A stretch of DNA of 25,267 nucleotides from a virus. Taxonomy: Duplodnaviria > Heunggongvirae > Uroviricota > Caudoviricetes. Of the stretch, positions 1 to 12,919 are shown in pieces. Each line of letters begins with the position of its first letter. Within the stretch, counting starts at the first letter, position 1. The stretch is from positions 1 to 25,267 of IMG/VR virus record IMGVR_UViG_2684622620_000017; one strand, given 5' to 3'. A program made the translations under genes and the position numbers. The notes below the pieces were generated by a model. That model did not search any database. It saw only the letters and a list, made by a program, of their open reading frames with translations, and was not told the origin of the DNA.

Positions 1-1053
1 TTACGGGGTAATGCCAACCGCTGCCGCCACTTTGTCGCCACTTGGCAGCGTTGCCAGAGGGTTGAAACGGAGCGCCGTTTCCAGATGATCCGGTGCCAGA
101 TGAGCGTAACGCATAGTCATTTTTATATCGTGATGTCCGAGGATTTTTTGCAAAGCAAGGATATTTCCACCCGACATCATGAAATGCGCCGCAAACGTAT
201 GGCGCAGAACGTGTGTCAGTTGACCGCGAGGGAGGACGATAGACGTTTTTTCCATCACGGATAAAAATTGAAAATAGCAGTCTGTGAAGAAATTGAACCC
301 ATCAAGCGCCATGATCTCTTCGTAAAGCTCTTTACTGATAGGGATGCTTCTGTTTTTCTTCCCCTTCGTTCTTACAAAGGTAATTCGGTATTTGGTCACC
401 TGTGAACGAGTAAGATTTACGGCTTCTCGCCAGCGTGCGCCTGTGCTTAAGCATATCTTAACTACCAGTGCCAGAATTGGGTCATGACGTTTGCAATCAG
501 CCAGTAATTCAACAATCTGCTCATGGGTAAGCCATGCCATCTCTTTTTCTGCGATGGTGAATTTTCGCATGTTCTCCAGTGGGTTCGGATACGACCATTC
601 GCCCAGGCGGGATAGTTCGCTAAAAACACTACTTAGATAGCTTTGCTCCAGGTTAATGGTGACCGGGCTTGCTCCTTTCTTCCATTTCTCGCTGAAGTAG
701 ATCTCACCTGTCAGGCGTTTATCTCGATAGTGGGCAAACATTTTAGAGGTTAGATCGGTTGCAAGGGGATTGCCCAGAGCGTCAACCATCAGCAGCAATT
801 TGTCATAGACATGCTGCCCAGCTGTCAGTGATTTACCATGTAGTTTGAACCATAGCTCAACCACGTCTTTCAGTGTTCGACGATCCACTGATTCACCTAG
901 CCAGGGCTTTGCTTCGGTTTCTTCCATCGTGTGACGCTCAAAAGCCAGTGCTTCGCCTTTGGTGGCGAATTGTTTACGCACACGACGTCCACTACGTCCG
1001 GCGGGGTAACATTCGCAAAGCCATTTTCCTGTGGTGAGTTTTCGTACTGCCAT
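1..1053 (-). CDS. int: Phage integrase, tyrosine site-specific recombinase (P2/186 type)
   Basis: 350-aa ORF; C-terminal catalytic region with conserved R...HxxR...Y-type residues (e.g. LRHTFAAH, MRYAHL); GGAGGG RBS upstream of the ATG at 1053; position at the prophage end next to the immunity region. Confidence 0.9.
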   Translation of the reverse strand: MAVRKLTTGKWLCECYPAGRSGRRVRKQFATKGEALAFERHTMEETEAKPWLGESVDRRTLKDVVELWFKLHGKSLTAGQHVYDKLLLMVDALGNPLATDLTSKMFAHYRDKRLTGEIYFSEKWKKGASPVTINLEQSYLSSVFSELSRLGEWSYPNPLENMRKFTIAEKEMAWLTHEQIVELLADCKRHDPILALVVKICLSTGARWREAVNLTRSQVTKYRITFVRTKGKKNRSIPISKELYEEIMALDGFNFFTDCYFQFLSVMEKTSIVLPRGQLTHVLRHTFAAHFMMSGGNILALQKILGHHDIKMTMRYAHLAPDHLETALRFNPLATLPSGDKVAAAVGITP

Positions 1054-1082
1054 AAAAAATGCCCTCCAGTGGAGAGTATTTA

Positions 1083-1102
1083 TACTGTTTTTTTATACAG
1101 TG
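1083..1102. promoter_or_regulatory. LexA-box-like palindrome (TACTGT-N8-ACAGTG) immediately upstream of int
   Basis: Sequence tactgtttttttatacagtg matches the CTGT-N8-ACAG SOS-box core with an AT-rich spacer; lies in the 90-bp gap between the membrane-protein gene stop (1144) and the int start (1053). Confidence 0.35.
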
Positions 1103-1143
1103 TCAATGTATGATGATTGGATAACTATACATATGTTATGTGT

Positions 1144-1824
1144 TTAATGCATTTTAGTTACATCTATGTTTTTATTGATTGTCTCTTTGTTACTGGAAAG
1201 TCTTTGTTCTTTTCTTTTAATGTATAACTCCCAACGAATATTATTCATTATGATAGCGTAGATATTAAAAATAAAAGTCTTTACTACTAACACTAAGTAA
1301 ATAAGGCTAGTCCCTATAACACAGTATCCAAATTTAATAATTAATTCTTTTATCGATTTTGAATATGGAAATAAATCAATTATATTGCCAATTATTCCAT
1401 CTTTTTGACAAAAGAGAATTATTATTAGATAAATGAAAGTAAACGTAATAAATGAGATGAAAACTTTCATAAATGCCATAAAGTTATATTTTAACGTGGG
1501 CATCTGTGTTTTTTTATGTTGTATTGACATCATCTGAAGAAACATCTCGGGTTTGGATAGTGTTGCAAATATTGTGAAACCAGCAATGAGAAAACCTAAG
1601 GTTGTCACTGCAAAGTTAAAACCAATCAAAGCCCAGTTTCTAATGTCAGATACTAAATGAGACATATCCTTCTCAATAAAAAAAGAGTTTGTTAATAAAA
1701 AAATAGATGCTGTGAGCAAAATGCAAATATGGAATGTACTAATAGTAATCCGTTTGCAGAGCAAGTAAACATCCCAAAGGTTTTTCTCTTTGGTTATTTC
1801 TTTAGCATCTATTTTATTTATCAT
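1144..1824 (-). CDS. Hypothetical multi-pass inner-membrane protein (226 aa), distal gene of an AT-rich two-gene cassette; candidate membrane effector
   Basis: Translation shows 4-5 long hydrophobic segments (e.g. ITISTFHICILLTASIFLLTN, WALIGFNFAVTTLGFLIAGFTIFATL, FMAFMKVFISFITFTFIYLIIILF); AT-rich codon usage unlike flanking phage genes; start overlaps the stop of the upstream ORF (ATGA at 1821-1824). Confidence 0.7.
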   Translation of the reverse strand: MINKIDAKEITKEKNLWDVYLLCKRITISTFHICILLTASIFLLTNSFFIEKDMSHLVSDIRNWALIGFNFAVTTLGFLIAGFTIFATLSKPEMFLQMMSIQHKKTQMPTLKYNFMAFMKVFISFITFTFIYLIIILFCQKDGIIGNIIDLFPYSKSIKELIIKFGYCVIGTSLIYLVLVVKTFIFNIYAIIMNNIRWELYIKRKEQRLSSNKETINKNIDVTKMH

Positions 1825-2849
1825 CGACCAAACCTTTCATATATATTGCTAATAATTCTAATCGTCTTTTGTGAAAGAGAACGGGGTAGAGATATCTTAC
1901 CTTCTTCTACAAGATTTTCATACCGCTCATAACTTTCATTTGCAGCTACTACCGTATCCTTTGATAATTCATTCATCTCACTTAACAAAACAAAGTCATC
2001 ATTGCTACCTTTGATTATATCACCATTGTCATCATATCCTTTAATATTTATTCCTGAATTAGCCAATCTGGTTGCTGATGTGAGTTGTTCTAAAACAGCA
2101 CCATGATTCAAGCCTGAATCGGTGTTTGAAAAGCGAATAGATGTAGAAATACTTCCCATTTCGTCTCCGGCACTTTCAAGTGACTCCCAAAATTCGTCGT
2201 TATCAATTTCTTCTTGATTTGTAGGGAGAAGTTTTACTGAGACATTTTGGATTTTATTAAAATTATCAATAAATTGCTCTAGGCTTTGTTTGTCAGTTAA
2301 CGGCGTTATTCTTAGCTTCGGGCGTTTGATTTCGTTCCGTAAGCTTTTTTTAGTGACTCGAGGTAAGTCAGGGTTTTCTTTGCGTTCTTCTTGTGCGGTT
2401 TCGTATAAATGAGATATGTATTTTTCATATTCTATGTTTAAGAAACACTGACTTGTTGACTGAAAGTTTTGAATTGTGGGAGCACCACTAACTTCCTTGC
2501 AAAGAATTAATCTGTGAGTGTTTAATATTAGAAGAAAGAAAGAGCTCGGGGCTGTTTCAAGCTCTTTATGATCTTCAACCAAATCAGCACCATCAAATAC
2601 TTGTTCTCTGGTTAATAATGTATTCTTAATAATCCGACCTTTAATTCCGAGTACTGGGGGTGTTGCTTCTTCGTCAAGTATGACGCATTCAGTATCAATG
2701 AAAAAGAACTCTGATTTGTCAGATATTCTGCGGATGTTTGCCATCTCCAAAAAAGAGGGGAAAACAATTTCATCATAATAGTCTAGCAAAACATCATCAC
2801 CAAAACGGAGAGTATAATTTCCAAATTCGAGTTTTTTTATAAAATCCAT
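1821..2849 (-). CDS. Hypothetical soluble protein (342 aa), proximal gene of the AT-rich two-gene cassette; no family recognised
   Basis: Long AT-rich ORF; GAGG RBS about 8 nt upstream of the ATG at 2849; starts 15 nt downstream of the cI stop; no P-loop or other motif I can identify by eye. Confidence 0.7.
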   Translation of the reverse strand: MDFIKKLEFGNYTLRFGDDVLLDYYDEIVFPSFLEMANIRRISDKSEFFFIDTECVILDEEATPPVLGIKGRIIKNTLLTREQVFDGADLVEDHKELETAPSSFFLLILNTHRLILCKEVSGAPTIQNFQSTSQCFLNIEYEKYISHLYETAQEERKENPDLPRVTKKSLRNEIKRPKLRITPLTDKQSLEQFIDNFNKIQNVSVKLLPTNQEEIDNDEFWESLESAGDEMGSISTSIRFSNTDSGLNHGAVLEQLTSATRLANSGINIKGYDDNGDIIKGSNDDFVLLSEMNELSKDTVVAANESYERYENLVEEGKISLPRSLSQKTIRIISNIYERFGR

Positions 2850-2864
2850 TACTATGCCTCAAGA

Positions 2865-3743
2865 TTAAATAGTACGGTACTGTGAGAAAATTTTGGCAAC
2901 TAATTTTATATCTTCTTTTTCACAATCAAATGTTAAATCATCGTCTGTTACTCGAAGATTGCCTCCAGGTAATAGAAAAATTTGTTTTAACTTGAAATTA
3001 TTTTGGTATTGAACAATCCATCTTCCGTCTTCAACATTAGCTTTATTCATGTGTGCAATATTTATGCAATGTTCGTCTTCAATTGCGAGTAAATCATTAA
3101 AATGAGGAAGCAGGGACTTATCTATCAATAAATGACCAGCATCGAAAATTTGATTGTCAATAAGTTTTACTTTAGGAATTTCTAAAGCTTCACTTTCTTC
3201 GCTTCCAAGTTTTTGCCCGCGCCCAGTTGCTAACCATAAAAGAGAAGTTCTTGTTTCCAACGAGCATCTTATGATCCAGTCAGCTGGGAATGTGTCTCGC
3301 AAGTATCTATTCGCCATTGTGCTTTTAGACACATTCAAATGGTCGGCAAGTTCTTGTCTTGTTTTAAAGCCATACGCTTCCATTAGCCTGTTTATCGCAT
3401 TACGTCCACCTGAATCCAGATTTGGATGGTTCACAATTGGGTTCTCGTTGGTGGTGGCTTTGGGAACATATTGAACCAATGATGCTGGTTCCTCTAATTT
3501 AGCGGGAACTTCGGTATTCTTAGGAAATGGCACGCCTTTTCCGAATGAGAGCCACTCTATAGATGCTCCTGTTTCAATTGCACACTGAATTACCCAGTCA
3601 GCAGGAAATGCGTCACGCATCCAGCGCGTTCCCATAGTACTTGCAGATACATTGAACTGTTCACATAGGGCTTGCCGCGTCTTGAATCCATACGCTTCAA
3701 GCATGCGCGTTATGACTGCCTGTCCTCCGTTTTTGAAATTCAT
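2865..3743 (-). CDS. cI: 186-type CI immunity repressor with a tandem-duplicated N-terminal DNA-binding domain plus C-terminal domain; no LexA-like peptidase domain evident
   Basis: Two internally homologous segments (RMLEAYGFKTRQALCEQFNVSASTMGTRWMRDAFPADWVIQCAIETGASIEWL and RLMEAYGFKTRQELADHLNVSKSTMANRYLRDTFPADWIIRCSLETRTSLLWL) of the phage CI-repressor DNA-binding type. The maximal ORF begins at a GTG at 3776, but the first ATG (3743) has a better context and the GTG overlaps the putative rightward promoter, so 3743 is used. Confidence 0.8.
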   Translation of the reverse strand: MNFKNGGQAVITRMLEAYGFKTRQALCEQFNVSASTMGTRWMRDAFPADWVIQCAIETGASIEWLSFGKGVPFPKNTEVPAKLEEPASLVQYVPKATTNENPIVNHPNLDSGGRNAINRLMEAYGFKTRQELADHLNVSKSTMANRYLRDTFPADWIIRCSLETRTSLLWLATGRGQKLGSEESEALEIPKVKLIDNQIFDAGHLLIDKSLLPHFNDLLAIEDEHCINIAHMNKANVEDGRWIVQYQNNFKLKQIFLLPGGNLRVTDDDLTFDCEKEDIKLVAKIFSQYRTI

Positions 3744-3769
3744 CTGGTACGCCTTTGAGTAATATTGAG

Positions 3770-3798
3770 TTGACACTTCTCAAATGAAGAATTAATGT
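3770..3798 (+). promoter_or_regulatory. Candidate rightward early (lytic, pR-like) sigma70 promoter in the cI/apl switch region
   Basis: TTGACA at 3770-3775, 17-nt spacer, TAATGT at 3793-3798 (or ATTAAT with 15-nt spacer); repeated TTGAC motifs nearby could be operator half-sites; located between the divergent cI and apl-like genes. Confidence 0.4.
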
Positions 3799-3868
3799 GT
3801 GCGAAAGTGAACTTGACGGTGTTAATCACCAGTTACCACACATCATGTTAATCGAGGAATCTTGCATC

Positions 3869-4090
3869 ATGACTCCACATATTTCAATCACCTTAGCTGT
3901 TCCATCTGTTTCTATTGAGAAATACAGCGAACTGACTGGCTTATCTATCGACACCATCAATGACATGCTGGCTGATGGACGTCTTATTCGCCATCGTCTC
4001 CGGAAGGACAAAAAAAGAGAAAAGGTAATGATCAACCTTGCTGCTCTTACCGTTGATGCACTTACTGATTGCAATGTTGTATTCAACTAG
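3869..4090 (+). CDS. Apl/Cox-like small HTH protein (excisionase / lytic-promoter repressor type)
   Basis: 73-aa ORF directly downstream of the candidate pR and divergent from cI; sequence ([24 protein letters not shown]) looks like a helix-turn-helix; start could alternatively be the ATG at 3845. Confidence 0.55.
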
Positions 4091-4122: not shown

Positions 4123-4632
4123 ATGTTTGATTACCAAGTTTCCAAACATCCACATTTTGATGAAGCCTGTCGTGCATTCGCGTTGCGCCACAACCTGGTG
4201 CAACTGGCAGAACGTGCAGGCATGAATGTGCAGATTCTGCGGAACAAGCTGAACCCAGCTCAACCTCATTTATTAACCGCACCAGACATCTGGCTGCTTA
4301 CCGATCTGACTGAGGATTCAACGCTGGTAGATGGTTTTCTGGCACAGATTCATTGTCTGCCATGTGTACCAATTAATGAGGTGGCAAAAGAGAAACTGCC
4401 ACATTACGTCATGAGTGCAACCGCAGAGATCGGGCGTGTTGCTGCAGGTGCGGTATCTGGCGATGTAAAAACCAGTGCAGGTCGTCGTGATGCTATCAGC
4501 AGCATTAACTCTGTAACACGACTGATGGCGCTGGCTGCTGTTTCATTGCAGGCCCGTTTACAGGCTAATCCTGCGATGGCGAGCGCAGTTGATACCGTGA
4601 CTGGCCTCGGTGCTTCATTCGGTTTGCTGTGA
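4123..4632 (+). CDS. cII: CII-like lysogeny-establishment transcription factor (186 CII type)
   Basis: 169-aa ORF, the same length as phage 186 CII as I recall it, in the position expected after apl; the homology itself is not verified here; start chosen at the ATG at 4123. Confidence 0.65.
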
Positions 4633-5673: not shown

Positions 5674-6527
5674 GCACCATCCTGAAATGGGCGGGAAATA
5701 AAACCGCCATAATGTCCGAACTGAAAAAGCATCTTCCTGCTGGCCCACGACTGGTTGAACCTTTCGCGGGTTCCTGTGCAGTGATGATGGAGACGGATTA
5801 CCCCAGCTATCTTGTTGCGGATATTAATCCTGATTTAATCAACCTCTATAAAAAGGTTGCTGCTGATTGTGAGGCGTTTATATCTCGTGCCAGAGCTTTA
5901 TTTGAGGAAGCAAACAGGGAGGTGGCTTATTACAACATAAGGCAGGAGTTTAATTACTCCACTGAAATTACTGATTTCATGAAAGCGGTATATTTTCTGT
6001 ATCTCAATCGTCATGGTTACCGTGGGTTATGTCGCTATAACAAGAGCGGGTATTTCAACATTCCCTACGGTAATTATAAAAATCCGTATTTCCCTGAAAA
6101 AGAAATTCGCGCATTTGCAGAGAAAGCCCAGCGGGCAACGTTTATCTGCGCCAGCTTTGATGAAACGCTGGCGATGTTGAAGGCGGGGGATGTGGTGTAT
6201 TGCGATCCGCCGTATGACGGTACGTTTTCCGGCTATCACACTGATGGTTTCACTGAAGATGACCAGTATCACCTGGCATCCGTTCTTGAACATCGGTCAT
6301 CAGAAGGACATCCGGTCATTGTTTCTAACAGTGACACATCCCTGATCCGTTCGCTGTATCGCAATTTTACTCACCACTACATCAAGGCAAAACGCAGCAT
6401 CGGTGTGGCAGCTGGTGATAGTAAATCTGCAACAGAAATCATTGCTGTTTCCGGGGCGCGCTGCTGGGTGGGATTTGATCCTTCGCGTGGCGTAGATAGT
6501 TCTGCTGTGTACGAGGTGCGTGTATGA
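5670..6527 (+). CDS. Dam-like N6-adenine DNA methyltransferase (orphan, no cognate endonuclease in window)
   Basis: N-terminal AdoMet-binding-like motif (LKWAGNK...VEPFAGS) and catalytic DPPY motif ([11 protein letters not shown]); GGAGGTG RBS upstream of the ATG at 5670, which overlaps the upstream stop. Confidence 0.8.
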
Positions 6528-8938
6528 GTCATGACGATATGAGCAACTCTAGCGGCTTTAACGAGGCCGCTGCATCATTTTCATGGAACGGCCCGAAAAA
6601 GGCCATTAACCCTTATCTGGACCCGGCGGAATTTGCGCCGGAGTCTGCACTTTCAAACCTGATCACTCTGTATGCTGCCGATAACGAGCAGGAACAACTG
6701 CGCCGCGAGGCACTGAGTGAGCAGGTCTGGGAGCGTTATTTCTTTAATGAATCCCGTGATCCTGTCCAGCGCGAAATGGAGCAGGATAAGCTCATTAGCC
6801 GGGCAAAGCTGGCGCATGAGCAGCAGCGTTTTAATCCAGACATGGTCATTCTGGCTGACGTCAACGCCCAGCCTTCCCATATCAGCAAGCCGCTGATGCA
6901 ACGTATTGAATACTTCAGCAGTCTGGGCAGGCCAAAGGCTTATTCCCGCTATTTGCGTGAGACGATTAAGCCATGTCTGGAACGACTGGAGCATGTACGC
7001 GACAGTCAGCTATCCACTTCTTTTCGCTTTATGGCAAGCCATGAAGGGCTGGACGGCCTGCTGATCCTGCCTGAAATGAGTCAGGATCAGGTGAAACGCC
7101 TGTCTACCCTTGTCGCTGCGCATATGAGCATGTGTCTTGATGCCGCTTGTGGTGATTTGTACGCCACCGATGATGTTAAGCCAGAAGAAATCCGCAAGAC
7201 ATGGGAAAAGGTGGCAGCGGAAACCCTACGTTTGGATGTCATCCCGCCTGCGTTTGAGCAACTCCGTCGGAAAAGAAACCGCCGTAAACCCGTGCCCTAT
7301 GAACTCATTCCGGGCTCGCTGGCGCGTATGCTGTGCGCCGACTGGTGGTATCGGAAATTGTGGAAGATGCGTTGCGAATGGCGGGAAGAGCAGTTGCGTG
7401 CTGTCTGCCTGGTCAGCAAAAAAGCATCTCCCTATGTCAGCTATGAAGCTGTGATGCATAAACGTGAGCAGTGCCGTAAGTCGCTGGAGTTTTTCCGTTC
7501 TCATGAACTGGTGAACGAAGACGGAGACGCGCTGGATATGGAAGATGTGGTAAACGCCAGCTGCAGCAACCCGGCGCATCGCCGCAATGAGATGATGGCC
7601 TGTGTTAAAGGTCTGGAGCTTATCGCGGAAATGCGCGGTGACTGCGCCGTTTTCTACACCATTACCTGTCCGTCACGTTTCCATTCCACGCTCAATAACG
7701 GCAGACCCAATCCGACCTGGAAAAACGCGACGGTAAGACAAAGCAGCGATTATCTGGTCGGTATGTTTGCTGCATTTCGTAAGGCGATGCACAAAGCCGG
7801 GTTGCGCTGGTATGGCGTGCGGGTGGCTGAGCCGCATCACGACGGCACAGTTCACTGGCACCTGTTGTGTTTCATGCGCAAAAAAGACCGCCGCGCCATT
7901 ACTGCATTGTTGCGTAAGTTTGCTATCCGTGAAGACCGCGAGGAGCTGGGCAATAACACGGGGCCGCGCTTTAAGTCTGAGCTGATTAACCCGCGCAAAG
8001 GAACGCCGACAAGCTACATAGCGAAATACATCAGTAAGAACATTGACGGGCGTGGTCTGGCTGGCGAGATCAGCAAGGAAACGGGTAAATCCCTGCGTGA
8101 TAACGCTGAATACGTGAATGCCTGGGCGTCTTTGCATCGTGTTCAGCAATTCCGCTTCTTTGGTATTCCGGGGCGTCAGGCTTACCGTGAACTGCGATTG
8201 CTGGCTGGTCAGGCGGCAAGGCAGCAGGGTGACAAAAAAGCAGGTGTGCCGGTACTGGATAACCCGCGCCTTGATGCCATTCTGGCTGCTGCTGATGCTG
8301 GTTGTTTTGCCACCTATATCATGAAGCAGGGAGGTGTACTGGTTCCCCGTAAATATCACCTCATCAGAACTGCTTATGAAATTAACGAAGAGCCGACCGC
8401 CTATGGCGATCACGGTATTCGTATTTATGGCATCTGGTCACCCATTGCAGAGGGCAAGATCTGCACTCATGCAGTGAAGTGGAAAATGGTTCGTAAGGCC
8501 GTTGACGTTCAGGAGGCGGTAGCCGACCAGAGCGCTTGCGCCCCTTGGACTCGTGGCAATAACTGTCCCCTTGCTGAAAATTTGAACCAACAAGGGAAAG
8601 ACAAATCAGCTGATGGGGACTCCAGAACGGATATTACCCGTATGAATGACAAGGAGTTGCACGATTACCTGCACAGTATGAGCAAAAAAGAGCGCCGGGA
8701 ACTGGCTGCAAGGTTACGCCAGGTGAAACCGAAACGGCGTAAAGACTACAAACAGCGAATTACAGACCATCAGCGACAGCAGCTCGTCTATGAACTGAAG
8801 TCCAGGGGATTTGATGGCAGCGAGAAAGAAGTCGATTTGCTCCTTCGCGGCGGCAGTATTCCGTCAGGAGCAGGCCTGCGTATCTTCTATCGGAACCAGC
8901 GTCTGAAGGAAGATGATAAGTGGCGGAACCTGTATTAA
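6524..8938 (+). CDS. A: Replication initiation protein A (rolling-circle nicking endonuclease, P2 gpA type)
   Basis: 804-aa ORF; HUH-like motif (TVHWHLL) and paired active-site tyrosines (YIAKYISK) typical of P2 A protein; position after the early operon. Confidence 0.9.
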
Positions 8939-9030: not shown

Positions 9031-9050
9031 TACTGTAAATATAAACAGTG
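9031..9050. promoter_or_regulatory. LexA (SOS) box within the promoter region of the small-ORF/DinI-like operon
   Basis: tactgtaaatataaacagtg matches the CTGT-N8-ACAG palindrome with an AT-rich spacer; located about 40 bp upstream of a strong RBS (AGGAGG) and the ATG at 9091. Confidence 0.55.
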
Positions 9051-9090
9051 GTTATGTATACAGTATTGTTTTGGTGTCATAGGAGGAAAG

Positions 9091-9279
9091 ATGCAGGACT
9101 ATTTTTTGGAGTCTTTGAAGCTCCAGCGCATTGATTTTTTTCTTAAGCTTGTAGCGGCTAGTGAGTGTAGTGATGAAGAGAAGGGGCTGGCTCTGCAGTG
9201 GGTTTCTGAATTGACAGATGAACTCATGGCAAAAATCAGAAGCCACGAATACAACCGCTCAATGGATGTCATCAGCTGA
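9091..9279 (+). CDS. Small protein (62 aa) in an SOS-controlled operon; candidate Tum-like antirepressor (by position only)
   Basis: AGGAGG RBS 5 nt upstream of the ATG; LexA box upstream; followed 10 nt later by the DinI-like gene. In phage 186 the LexA-controlled operon at this genomic position encodes the antirepressor Tum; homology not verified. Confidence 0.5.
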   Translation: MQDYFLESLKLQRIDFFLKLVAASECSDEEKGLALQWVSELTDELMAKIRSHEYNRSMDVIS

Positions 9280-9289
9280 GGTGACTTTT

Positions 9290-9523
9290 ATGCGCATTGA
9301 AATAATGATCGATAAAGAGCAGAAGATTAGCCAGTCTACCCTGGACGCCCTTGAATCCGAGCTTTACCGCAATCTGCGCCCCCTGTATCCCAAAACGGTA
9401 ATTCGCATTCGCAAAGGTAGCTCTAACGGTGTGGAACTAACCGGACTGCAACTGGATGAAGAAAGAAAACAAGTGATGAAAATTATGCAGAAGGTGTGGG
9501 AGGACGACAGCTGGCTGCATTAA
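9290..9523 (+). CDS. DinI-family protein (damage-inducible, RecA modulator type)
   Basis: 77-aa protein MRIEIMIDKEQKISQSTLDALESELYRNL...QKVWEDDSWL has the DinI family pattern (MRIE... start, acidic C-terminus ending in W); GAGGTG RBS; downstream of the LexA box. Confidence 0.75.
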   Translation: MRIEIMIDKEQKISQSTLDALESELYRNLRPLYPKTVIRIRKGSSNGVELTGLQLDEERKQVMKIMQKVWEDDSWLH

Positions 9524-10582: not shown

Positions 10583-12919
10583 ATGATTGAAGAGGTAGTT
10601 ATTGACAAGGTAGGCTCATATAATGGCCCTACGCAGCTTTTACATGGACTTTCTAAATTTAACTATTTATATGGAGCTAATGGTGCAGGTAAAACAACTA
10701 TAAGTAAAATTATTAATGACCCTGAACAATATCCAACATGTCCGATTAAATGGAAAAATAATATATCTTTAATAAGCTACGTATATAATAAAGATTTTGT
10801 TGAAAGAAATTTTAGTCAAGATAAAATTAAAGGTGTATTTACCCTTGGTAGCGATCTTAAGGAGGATGAAGAGAAACTAATATCTCTTAAAGAAGAAAAA
10901 AATAAGCTAATGGAATCTATTATAGCAAAGGAAAAGTTAATAGATGGTGGTGATAATGAATTAGGCGTTATTAAAAAAATCGAAGACCATGAAAAATCTT
11001 TTAAAGATTCATGTTGGAAGCAAAAAGTAAAACATGACAATGTGTTCTCAAAGGCTTTTGAGGGATTAAGGAATAGTAGTGAAAAATTTAAAGCCAGAGT
11101 GTTGGCTGAGTATGAAAATAATACATCAGAAGTTTGCTCAATAGCAGAGTTAATTGAGAAAGCAAAAATTGTTTTTTCTACTGAATTGACATCACATGTA
11201 TCAATTACAATTCCATCCTTCAATGGGATAGATGATATTTTGAGTAGGGAAATTTGGAGTGAGCGTATTCTAGGGAAAAAAGACGTTAGTGTTTCAGACT
11301 TAATTACAATGCTCAATAATAGTGATTGGGTTAAGGAGGGTTTAACATATTTCAGTAAATCTAATCCCAAGTGCCCATTCTGCCAGCAGGATGTAAATGA
11401 TAATGTATTTGATAATCTTTCATCATATTTTGATAAAACATATGAGTTAAAAAAAAGAGAAATCGATGCATTGGTTTTACAATATGAATATCAACTTAAT
11501 AATATCTTGAAGGCGATAGATGATATAAGGGCGATTAAATCTCCATTCATAAATTATGAAGTGTTTGAGGATAAGGCTAAGATAGTATTATCTGAATTAA
11601 ACAAGAATTTTGAATTGGCAAAAAATAAACGCAATTTTTTAAGTGAATCAGTTCATTTTAGTGACTTAAGTGAAGTTGTTGATGATTTTATTTCTTTTTT
11701 GAATGATTCAAATCTATTGATAGATAATAATAACAAAATACATAGTAATAGAAAGGTAGAGGCTAGTAATCTTTCTAAGCAGATATGGGCATATATCGTA
11801 AAGGTGGAGTTAAAGTCTGAAATAACTTCTTACCGTAGCAAATCTGATAAATTTAATAGGACGTTACAAGGACTTAAATCTGGGATAGAAGAAGACAAAA
11901 AGAAGTTAATGTTAAATACTTCGGCTATTGAGGCAATTGAGTCTAATAAAACCAGTACTCTTCCAACTATTACAAAAATTAACAAGATTCTGGACTCTTA
12001 TGGCTTCAAAAATTTTTACTTAAAACCCTCCGAAGATAAAAAGCATTATATGATAGTGAGAGATAGTGGAGATAATGCTCGTACAACCCTTAGTGAGGGA
12101 GAAAAGACATTTATCACTTTTTTGTACTTTTATAGCCTTGTTAGAGGGAGTGATAATGCATCAGGTGTTTTAGATGATCGTGTTGTAGTATTTGATGATC
12201 CAATTTCAAGTTTAGATAGTGATATTCTGTTTATTGTAAGTTCGTTGATTAAAGATTTAATGGAGGATGTTCGTAAGGATGAAGGAAATATTAAGCAAAT
12301 TATATTCCTTACTCATAATATTTATTTTCATAAAGAGTTGACTTTTAATACCAAAAGATCCGGTAATCAAGCAATGAAAGAGGAGACTTTTTGGATTGTA
12401 AGGAAAAAAGGGAAGGTTTCATATCTTGAAAAGTGCGAATCAAACCCAATAAAAACGTCTTATGATTTGCTCTGGTGCGAATTGAGAAGAACAGACATTA
12501 ATAATAATACTATACAAAATACAATGCGAAGGATTTTGGAGAATTACTTTAAGATATTAGGTGGGATGGATATTAGGAAGCTTGAGTGTCATTTTTATGG
12601 TGATGAAAAAATCATATTTAAATCTTTAGTGTCATGGATTAATGATGGTTCTCATTTTGCAGGTGATGATCTTTATATGAATTTAGATACGGAGTCTGTG
12701 CAAAAATATTTAATTGTTTTTCAGAAGATATTTGAATGTAGTGAGCATACTGCCCATTACAAAATGATGATGGGTGAGTTTTATAAACCGTTAAATGAGT
12801 CACTTCATCTACAAAATGAGTTTGATATAGATGATAGTGCGAATGATGAGTATGCTTCGTCAAAAATTGAGATAAAAGATGGAATAAACACATCTCTACA
12901 TAGCAACACATATTTGTAA
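10583..12919 (+). CDS. AT-rich 778-aa ABC-type (Rad50/SMC-like) ATPase with coiled-coil insertion and CxxC motif; RloC/PrrC-like candidate anticodon nuclease / abortive-infection protein
   Basis: Walker A GANGAGKTT near the N-terminus; ABC signature-like LSEGEKT, Walker B/D-loop VVVFDDPISSLD and H-loop FLTHN about 480-560 aa downstream; long Lys/Glu-rich, likely coiled-coil insertion with a central CPFC (zinc-hook-like); C-terminal region has RRILE (R-x3-E) followed by conserved His candidates, reminiscent of the PrrC Arg-Glu-His nuclease triad; strong RBS GAGGATTAGAGG. Confidence 0.6.
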   Translation: MIEEVVIDKVGSYNGPTQLLHGLSKFNYLYGANGAGKTTISKIINDPEQYPTCPIKWKNNISLISYVYNKDFVERNFSQDKIKGVFTLGSDLKEDEEKLISLKEEKNKLMESIIAKEKLIDGGDNELGVIKKIEDHEKSFKDSCWKQKVKHDNVFSKAFEGLRNSSEKFKARVLAEYENNTSEVCSIAELIEKAKIVFSTELTSHVSITIPSFNGIDDILSREIWSERILGKKDVSVSDLITMLNNSDWVKEGLTYFSKSNPKCPFCQQDVNDNVFDNLSSYFDKTYELKKREIDALVLQYEYQLNNILKAIDDIRAIKSPFINYEVFEDKAKIVLSELNKNFELAKNKRNFLSESVHFSDLSEVVDDFISFLNDSNLLIDNNNKIHSNRKVEASNLSKQIWAYIVKVELKSEITSYRSKSDKFNRTLQGLKSGIEEDKKKLMLNTSAIEAIESNKTSTLPTITKINKILDSYGFKNFYLKPSEDKKHYMIVRDSGDNARTTLSEGEKTFITFLYFYSLVRGSDNASGVLDDRVVVFDDPISSLDSDILFIVSSLIKDLMEDVRKDEGNIKQIIFLTHNIYFHKELTFNTKRSGNQAMKEETFWIVRKKGKVSYLEKCESNPIKTSYDLLWCELRRTDINNNTIQNTMRRILENYFKILGGMDIRKLECHFYGDEKIIFKSLVSWINDGSHFAGDDLYMNLDTESVQKYLIVFQKIFECSEHTAHYKMMMGEFYKPLNESLHLQNEFDIDDSANDEYASSKIEIKDGINTSLHSNTYL

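Follow-up and report, generated by a model that had tools for sequence, protein, structure and literature searches.

We propose that the palindrome lying just upstream of the integrase gene in a 186-like member of the P2 family (Peduoviridae) is probably the LexA operator of a sigma-70 promoter, hereafter Pint, that is dedicated to the integrase of this prophage. The proposal is drawn from the sequence of one stretch of DNA of 25,267 nucleotides (the window) and from its comparison with related integrase loci. In the textbook picture of 186 and P2, int has no promoter of its own and is carried on the repressor transcript, whereas here int is apparently cut off from that transcript and directly controlled by the SOS response. 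Because a strong and deeply conserved predicted LexA site fills the spacer of the int promoter, DNA damage probably turns int on directly. The original prediction had raised a LexA box that ties int to the SOS response, and in silico this finds support in the score of the box, in its position within a promoter, in its near-complete conservation among related loci and in the presence of a tum promoter at 9031 of the same window. The literature searched, which included few subscription papers, contained no account of an int promoter under LexA control in P2/186-like phages. The elements around the int start are as follows.

Positions 1 to 1053, minus strand: int, a tyrosine integrase of 350 residues (Pfam Int_N and Phage_integrase; PHROG integrase).
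Positions 1054 to 1076, minus strand: hairpin CTCTCC-ACT-GGAGGG followed by a T-run (1054-1059); the 3' arm of the hairpin is the int Shine-Dalgarno sequence (1062-1067).
Positions 1079 to 1084, minus strand: predicted -10 hexamer of Pint, TATAAA, 16 nt after the -35 and agreeing with the consensus at five of six positions.
Positions 1083 to 1102, minus strand: predicted LexA operator (SOS box), CACTGTATAAAAAAACAGTA, filling the promoter spacer; heterology index 2.87.
Positions 1101 to 1106, minus strand: predicted -35 hexamer of Pint, TTGACA, read from the sequence.
Positions 1106 to 1132, no strand assigned: inverted repeat ATGTATA-N13-CATACAT, similar to the CII operator of 186 and directly adjoining the -35 on its upstream side; half-site centres predicted at -37 and -57.

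The palindrome reads tactgtttttttatacagtg at window positions 1083-1102 and lies, as had been claimed, in the short gap between cassette and int, a 90-nt interval that runs from the last cassette ORF (1144-1824, minus strand) to the int start codon (1053). Its core, CTGT-N8-ACAG, occurs twice in the 25,267-nt window (1085-1100 and 9033-9048), both times between genes. The earlier chance estimate of about 0.4 such cores was of the right order, given that dinucleotide-preserving shuffles yield a mean of 0.21 and that none of 100 shuffles reached two copies. On the int strand the 20-mer is CACTGTATAAAAAAACAGTA, the CTGT-N8-ACAG of which falls within the SOS-box consensus TACTGTATATATATACAGTA. The proposed scoring against a LexA weight matrix was carried out with a heterology-index matrix of 27 E. 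coli LexA boxes; as this is not the published matrix, absolute values are approximate, but the ranking is still unambiguous. With its index of 2.87 on this matrix, CACTGTATAAAAAAACAGTA is the best 20-mer in the window and lies within the range of genuine SOS boxes, most of which it surpasses (the 27 known E. coli boxes score 0.85-9.4 on the same matrix). The other window sites follow at 4.25 (9031) and 8.06 (9046-9065), the next best 20-mer at 11.9, and the best 20-mer of 40 shuffled windows averages 11.5. From the umuDC/sbmC box the int-strand sequence differs by only one to two bases.

The int strand reads TTGACA-CTGTATAAAAAAACAG-TATAAA, and the box is located 30 nt upstream of the int ATG. 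In full, the order on this strand is ATGTATA-N13-CATACAT, TGACA (giving TTGACA), CTGTATAAAAAAACAG, TATAAA, TA, CTCTCC ACT GGAGGG, CATTTTTT and ATG, with transcription predicted to start near 1072. Pint is absent from a consensus promoter scan of the window, because that scan demands T as the last base of the -10 and TATAAA is without this usually conserved final T. Among the relatives, TTGAC(A/C) or TTTACA directly adjoins the box at the -35 position, and TAAAAT, TAAATT or AAAAAT is found at the -10 position. In every lineage the box is flanked by a consensus -35 and a -10-like hexamer spaced 16-18 nt apart. Two further roles for the palindrome were considered and rejected: part of an RNA hairpin, as its interior is not self-complementary, and an attP or Int arm site, as attP lies on the other side of int.

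How well is this arrangement kept among related phages? The comparison covered one genome per species together with viral contigs and comprised 150 usable loci from about 20 enterobacterial genera, with int identities of 54-100%. The promoter signature that was scored, a -35/half-site located 50-75 nt upstream of the ATG, is present in 121 of the 150 loci (67 distinct sequences). Adjoining it, CTG-N10-CAG is found in 120 of the 121 loci, or 66 of the 67 distinct sequences, and because the compared sequences are related, the 121-locus counts overstate the number of independent events. Over 56 distinct boxes the heterology index ranges from 0.85 to 9.6 with a median of 3.3. The interior and the flanks of the box vary, but both outer triplets are conserved, as are the A that precedes CTG, the ATA that precedes CAG and the T that follows CAG. 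The hosts include Escherichia, Klebsiella, Enterobacter, Raoultella, Citrobacter, Kluyvera and Serratia as well as Yersinia, Pectobacterium, Rahnella, Ewingella, Pantoea, Mixta and Brenneria. The sole module without a box, L017:3930-4003 from Dryocola clanedunensis, reads GTGG for CTGG, a single C-to-G change. In this locus the -35 is also degraded to TTAAAA, the hairpin is damaged and no cII turned up in the flank, and the prophage appears to be decaying.

Two individual loci illustrate how the module varies. In Pectobacterium brasiliense (L027:3940-4003) the int box, CTGTTTTTTTATACAG, is the exact reverse complement of the int-strand box of the window and is followed by TATAAAT, as in the window, and the int protein is only 57% identical; either convergence or an inversion of the palindrome interior might account for it. 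In the laboratory strain E. coli B REL606 (L163, NC_012967 881132-882300) the module is found upstream of the P2-like prophage integrase ECB_RS26130 and reads TTGACA-CTGGTTATACATACAG-TAAAAAT, with a 63-aa ORF between cI and int. The REL606 int gene is thereby a predicted member of the SOS regulon that is absent from K-12. Across complete E. coli genomes, the int 5' end together with the module was matched in 1206 of 5426 (about one fifth), and 963 of the matches span the box.

The short leader between Pint and int contains the hairpin listed above, which also appeared as a terminator-like match in a terminator scan, with CATTTTTT as its T-run. In the window it is weak (6 bp, minimum free energy -7.7 kcal/mol, z -3.2), and its 5' arm contains the predicted start site near 1072. 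Of 46 distinct leaders, 43 have a hairpin at or below -7 kcal/mol, with -12 to -19 kcal/mol in most relatives, and its arms are wholly different from lineage to lineage (among others, GCTCTCC/GGAGGGC, AGCCCTC/GAGGGCT, CCCCCTT/AAGGGGG, CACATTCTC/GAGAATGTG and TCCTCCATT/AATGGAGGA). Since hairpin arms and loops cannot be aligned between distant lineages, MAFFT and RNAalifold on 40 leaders returned a consensus of four pairs only; folds of single sequences against shuffles were used instead, and these give z-scores of -2.9 to -6.5 in nine of ten lineages tested. The 5' arm ends 13-16 nt past the box in 43 of 43 hairpins, where the start site is expected, and the Shine-Dalgarno sequence lies within the 3' arm in 38 of the 43. 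An Rfam search of the region gave a chance-level match to a Phe leader only (E = 0.91).

In most lineages the hairpin is followed by a T-run and has the shape of an intrinsic terminator. No leader combines a T-run ahead of the ATG with an intrinsic terminator upstream of the module: the 12 lineages with an upstream intrinsic terminator are all without the T-run, and the three leaders that have no hairpin all have an upstream terminator. In the 12 lineages with a terminator just upstream of the module, int must have its own promoter. More generally, the complementary distribution of terminators suggests that int would always be shielded from transcription arriving from cI and cargo, and we lean, if only slightly, towards such an insulation mechanism.

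The remaining features that bear on the argument lie further along the window.

Positions 1144 to 2849, minus strand: AT-rich cargo of two genes (ORFs 1821-2849 and 1144-1824), downstream of cI and ending 90 nt before int.
Positions 2865 to 3776, minus strand: cI, a 186-type repressor of 303 aa (two matches to Pfam Phage_CI_repr and a match to Phage_CI_C).
Positions 3797 to 4090, rightward: apl/cox.
Positions 4123 to 4632, rightward: cII.
Positions 4123 to 4149, no strand assigned: canonical pE CII operator ATGTTTG-N13-CAAACAT, the first 27 nt of cII.
Positions 6524 to 8938, rightward: replication gene.
Positions 9031 to 9065, plus strand: a pair of LexA boxes, 9031-9050 and 9046-9065, that overlap each other; downstream of them are a 62-aa ORF and a DinI/Tum-like gene (9218-9523).

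The gene at 9218-9523 encodes a DinI domain, and 9031-9065 is the homologue of the 186 p95-tum promoter, for which the 186 record annotates a LexA box at p95. Because the box at 9031 corresponds to this LexA-controlled promoter, the phage already relies on the LexA protein of its host. The LexA-like site at 9046-9065 (CAGTGGTTATGTATACAGTA, index 8.06), the third in the window, overlaps the box at 9031-9050 by five bases, so the tum-type promoter of the window has tandem boxes against the single box annotated at 186 p95. The cI protein has helix-turn-helix domains at residues ~20-90 and 127-188, ahead of the CI C-terminal domain; this two-headed form is shared by Klebsiella phage 4LV2017 (313 aa) and numerous related loci, unlike 186 CI with its single domain of this kind. 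Among phage records, the nearest to the window are Klebsiella phages 4LV2017 and KP12 and Escherichia phage vB_EcoM-813R9; over the 196 bases tested (window 950-1145), the chromosome of E. coli 8GC is 100% identical.

Might the inverted repeat at the upstream edge of Pint represent a second input? The pattern ATGTWTR-N10-16-YAWACAT has two copies in the window where 0.01 are expected, one at 1106-1132 and the other at 4123-4149, the position of the CII site annotated in the 186 record. The int repeat agrees with the pE consensus at five to six of seven positions per half-site (one to two mismatches), and the proximal half-site is separated from the -10 by 21 nt both at Pint and at 186 pE. Among 62 distinct modules, a spacer of exactly 12 nt (30 modules) or 13 nt (20 modules) separates the distal WTGTWTR half-site from the proximal YAWACAT in 50; two have N8, and none has any other spacing between 6 and 21. 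The pE sites of related phages invariably have N13, whereas the Pint spacer is 12 nt in most relatives, and a change of 1 bp in this spacing reportedly weakens CII binding according to earlier work on 186. At 186 pE, a promoter with a repeat of the ATGTTTG/CAAACAT type, the CII half-sites are centred at -38/-58 (PMC6593788); the values of -37/-57 for Pint rest on the predicted start at 1072, so the pE geometry is reproduced here by prediction. 186 pE has a poor -35 and negligible basal activity, in contrast to the consensus -35 and LexA box of Pint. Because its -35 is the consensus TTGACA and not the weak hexamer typical of the pE class, we do not place Pint in that class, though modulation by CII may still occur. 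A CII input at Pint, as suggested by the sequence, strikes us as a fair candidate that falls somewhat short of being probable. 186 itself is said to have one CII-activated promoter only (PMC7708051), and a second, int-proximal CII site would, if true, be new for the 186-like family.

The module appears to be a property of int and not of its neighbours. It is found with many unrelated upstream gene sets, the distance from the end of cI to the int ATG varying from ~420 to ~3300 nt, and is absent where int abuts cI, as in phage 186 and Salmonella phage RE-2010. Since 120 of the 121 modules keep the box whatever genes lie upstream, the box belongs to the int promoter and not to the cassette. The suggested comparison with relatives lacking the cassette gave the same picture: the module is kept, and among the 121 modules no relative with the same int was seen without a box save the decayed Dryocola locus. 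The exact allele TTGACACTGTATAAAAAAACAGTATAAA is nevertheless confined to loci with this cassette sequence upstream, and in 4LV2017 the int gene is 98% identical, yet the box interior differs at about half of its positions. Together these two observations suggest that recombination during cargo exchange takes place inside the conserved module or close to it. Co-acquisition with the cassette, which the original prediction had offered as an option, therefore finds no support for the module as a whole, given the many unrelated upstream sets and gaps down to 420 nt, and survives in the narrower sense that the allele of the box interior travels with the cassette.

Could the palindrome be read differently? 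One alternative retains LexA but dispenses with a separate int promoter, making the protein a roadblock or attenuator on readthrough from the cI-cargo operon. Such a role would suit a locus in which cI, cargo and int share one strand and are separated by short gaps, and in 186 and P2 the repressor transcript includes int (PMC7708051). It is unlikely, however, in view of the consensus -35 and -10-like hexamer that flank the box at 16-18 nt spacing in every lineage, the intrinsic terminator just upstream of the module in 12 lineages and the terminator-like hairpin between box and ATG in the remaining ones. The earlier idea that LexA acts on cI-operon readthrough likewise finds no support: the box sits inside a local promoter, and a hairpin that would terminate transcription or mask the ribosome-binding site separates int from upstream transcription. 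Nor does the site have to be bound by LexA at all, as conservation alone does not name the binder and the module holds a second conserved inverted repeat for a different protein; an operator for another dimeric protein, of phage or host, with the same CTG-N10-CAG spacing is conceivable. The conserved LexA-specific flanks and AT-rich interior, heterology indices as low as those of genuine SOS boxes, a window allele that is nearly the umuDC box and the LexA box at the tum promoter of the same phage make this option still harder to sustain than the roadblock.

A genuine LexA box might also have arrived with the AT-rich cassette and have no role in int control. The restriction of TTGACACTGTATAAAAAAACAGTATAAA to loci with the same cassette sequence and the divergence of the interior from 4LV2017 would be expected in that case; the box is nonetheless found at the same position with unrelated upstream gene sets in distant genera, and homology with phages carrying other cargo continues through the box to ~1116, which renders a cassette origin improbable in the extreme. 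Finally, a short palindrome in an AT-rich region could be a product of chance or a mere part of an RNA or DNA secondary structure. Against this stand the two matches where 0.21 are expected, outer triplets that are near-universal around a variable interior incapable of pairing with itself, and the absence of any Rfam family matching the region, and among all readings we give this one the least credence. The reading that we prefer remains that of a LexA operator within Pint.

As judged by analogy, Pint would work like an SOS promoter of the recA/umuDC type and like 186 p95. The recA promoter, TTGATA-CTGTATGAGCATACAG-TATAAT, has its LexA box in the spacer, and the layout of recA-type SOS promoters is identical to that of Pint, TTGACA-CTGT..ACAG-TATAAA. 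Unlike these promoters, Pint is borne by a prophage, drives a site-specific recombinase and adds an activator-like repeat and a leader hairpin. The 186 p95-tum promoter belongs to the same phage family and answers to the same host repressor, and given that the window contains its homologue in addition to the Pint box, both promoters would fire on the same signal. The 186 p95 box overlaps the -10 and controls an antirepressor, whereas the Pint box fills the spacer. The int gene of phage 186, which adjoins cI and is read from pL and pE, has no such box.

Beyond the P2 family, lambda pI is comparable in that int has a promoter to itself, located downstream of the repressor region, which an establishment activator could switch on. 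It differs from Pint in having an unrelated activator, no LexA control and sib retroregulation in place of a promoter-embedded hairpin; the activation of the lambda integrase gene by CII is described in PMC7708051. The promoters of integron integrases are repressed by LexA (PMC3108266) and thus resemble Pint in placing a tyrosine recombinase of a mobile element under a LexA box, a likeness that is functional only. Integrons belong to another element with another recombinase clade, and their integrase promoters are without a CII-like site or leader hairpin. The window Int is a P2/186-type phage integrase and not an integron integrase, scoring 55 bits with the IntI models against a cut-off of 265 bits (NCBIfam).

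How might these elements act together? We envision that in the lysogen pL would transcribe cI and the cargo into an RNA bearing the full hairpin, which would terminate, or have its ribosome-binding site masked, just before int. LexA bound between -35 and -10 would meanwhile hold Pint closed, so that no Int would be made. Upon DNA damage, LexA cleavage would open the tum promoter at 9031, Tum would inactivate CI, and Apl would be made from pR; the same damage signal would open Pint. Transcripts from Pint, which start near 1072, would be without the 5' arm of the hairpin and hence would escape termination and keep the ribosome-binding site free. Int and Apl might then excise the prophage. After infection, CII bound at the upstream repeat may aid RNA polymerase at Pint and so provide Int for integration, comparable to lambda CII at pI. 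If LexA occupies the spacer in undamaged cells, this would count against the model, which has to supply Int for integration after infection.

Taken to its full extent, this scheme would mean that a large lineage of 186-like prophages has turned int into a self-contained unit with three inputs, namely a promoter nested in a terminator, a LexA operator and a CII operator at pE geometry, such that Int is made only upon damage or at high CII and never from the lysogenic transcript. We put this combined reading forward tentatively and with considerable doubt. If true, the insulation would let the cI-int interval take up foreign, probably defensive, genes, and int would represent a widespread and unrecognised member of the SOS regulon in E. 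coli B and about one fifth of E. coli genomes. A corollary is that induction would be two-pronged, since cleavage of LexA would release the Tum antirepressor as well as Int, and Pint would represent a naturally occurring terminator-embedded promoter. Such control would bear on prophage stability, on SOS-triggered gene transfer after antibiotics and on the annotation of SOS regulons outside K-12.

An int gene that is insulated and has its own promoter would leave the cI-int interval able to accept foreign genes, and this would explain the variable cargo found there. In the window, the cargo has a GC content of 32% against ~50% in the rest of the phage and is apparently in one operon with cI. 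It encodes a soluble protein of 342 aa and a protein of 226 aa with about four hydrophobic or transmembrane segments, neither of which has a match in Pfam, PHROGs, PADLOC or NCBIfam; the pair could be an unrecognised defence or exclusion pair. A similarly arranged gene pair is located at the same place in 4LV2017, without DNA similarity to the window cargo. Across the related loci L004-L160 the length of the interval varies between 5 nt and ~3.3 kb, and its genes are unrelated from phage to phage; KP12 and 813R9, for instance, have a 558-aa 'chromosome segregation ATPase' there, and REL606 has its 63-aa ORF. The interval behaves like a hotspot for cargo, with the conserved int promoter module at its border. 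A 2026 survey counts the integrase-primase region of P2-like phages among the minor defence hotspots (PMC13586616). Elsewhere in the window, positions 10583-12919 (plus strand) encode a 778-aa AAA_13 ATPase that matches the PADLOC candidate defence family PDC-S06 (E = 1.6e-266), at a site, between the replication gene and the portal gene, that is a known P2 hotspot.
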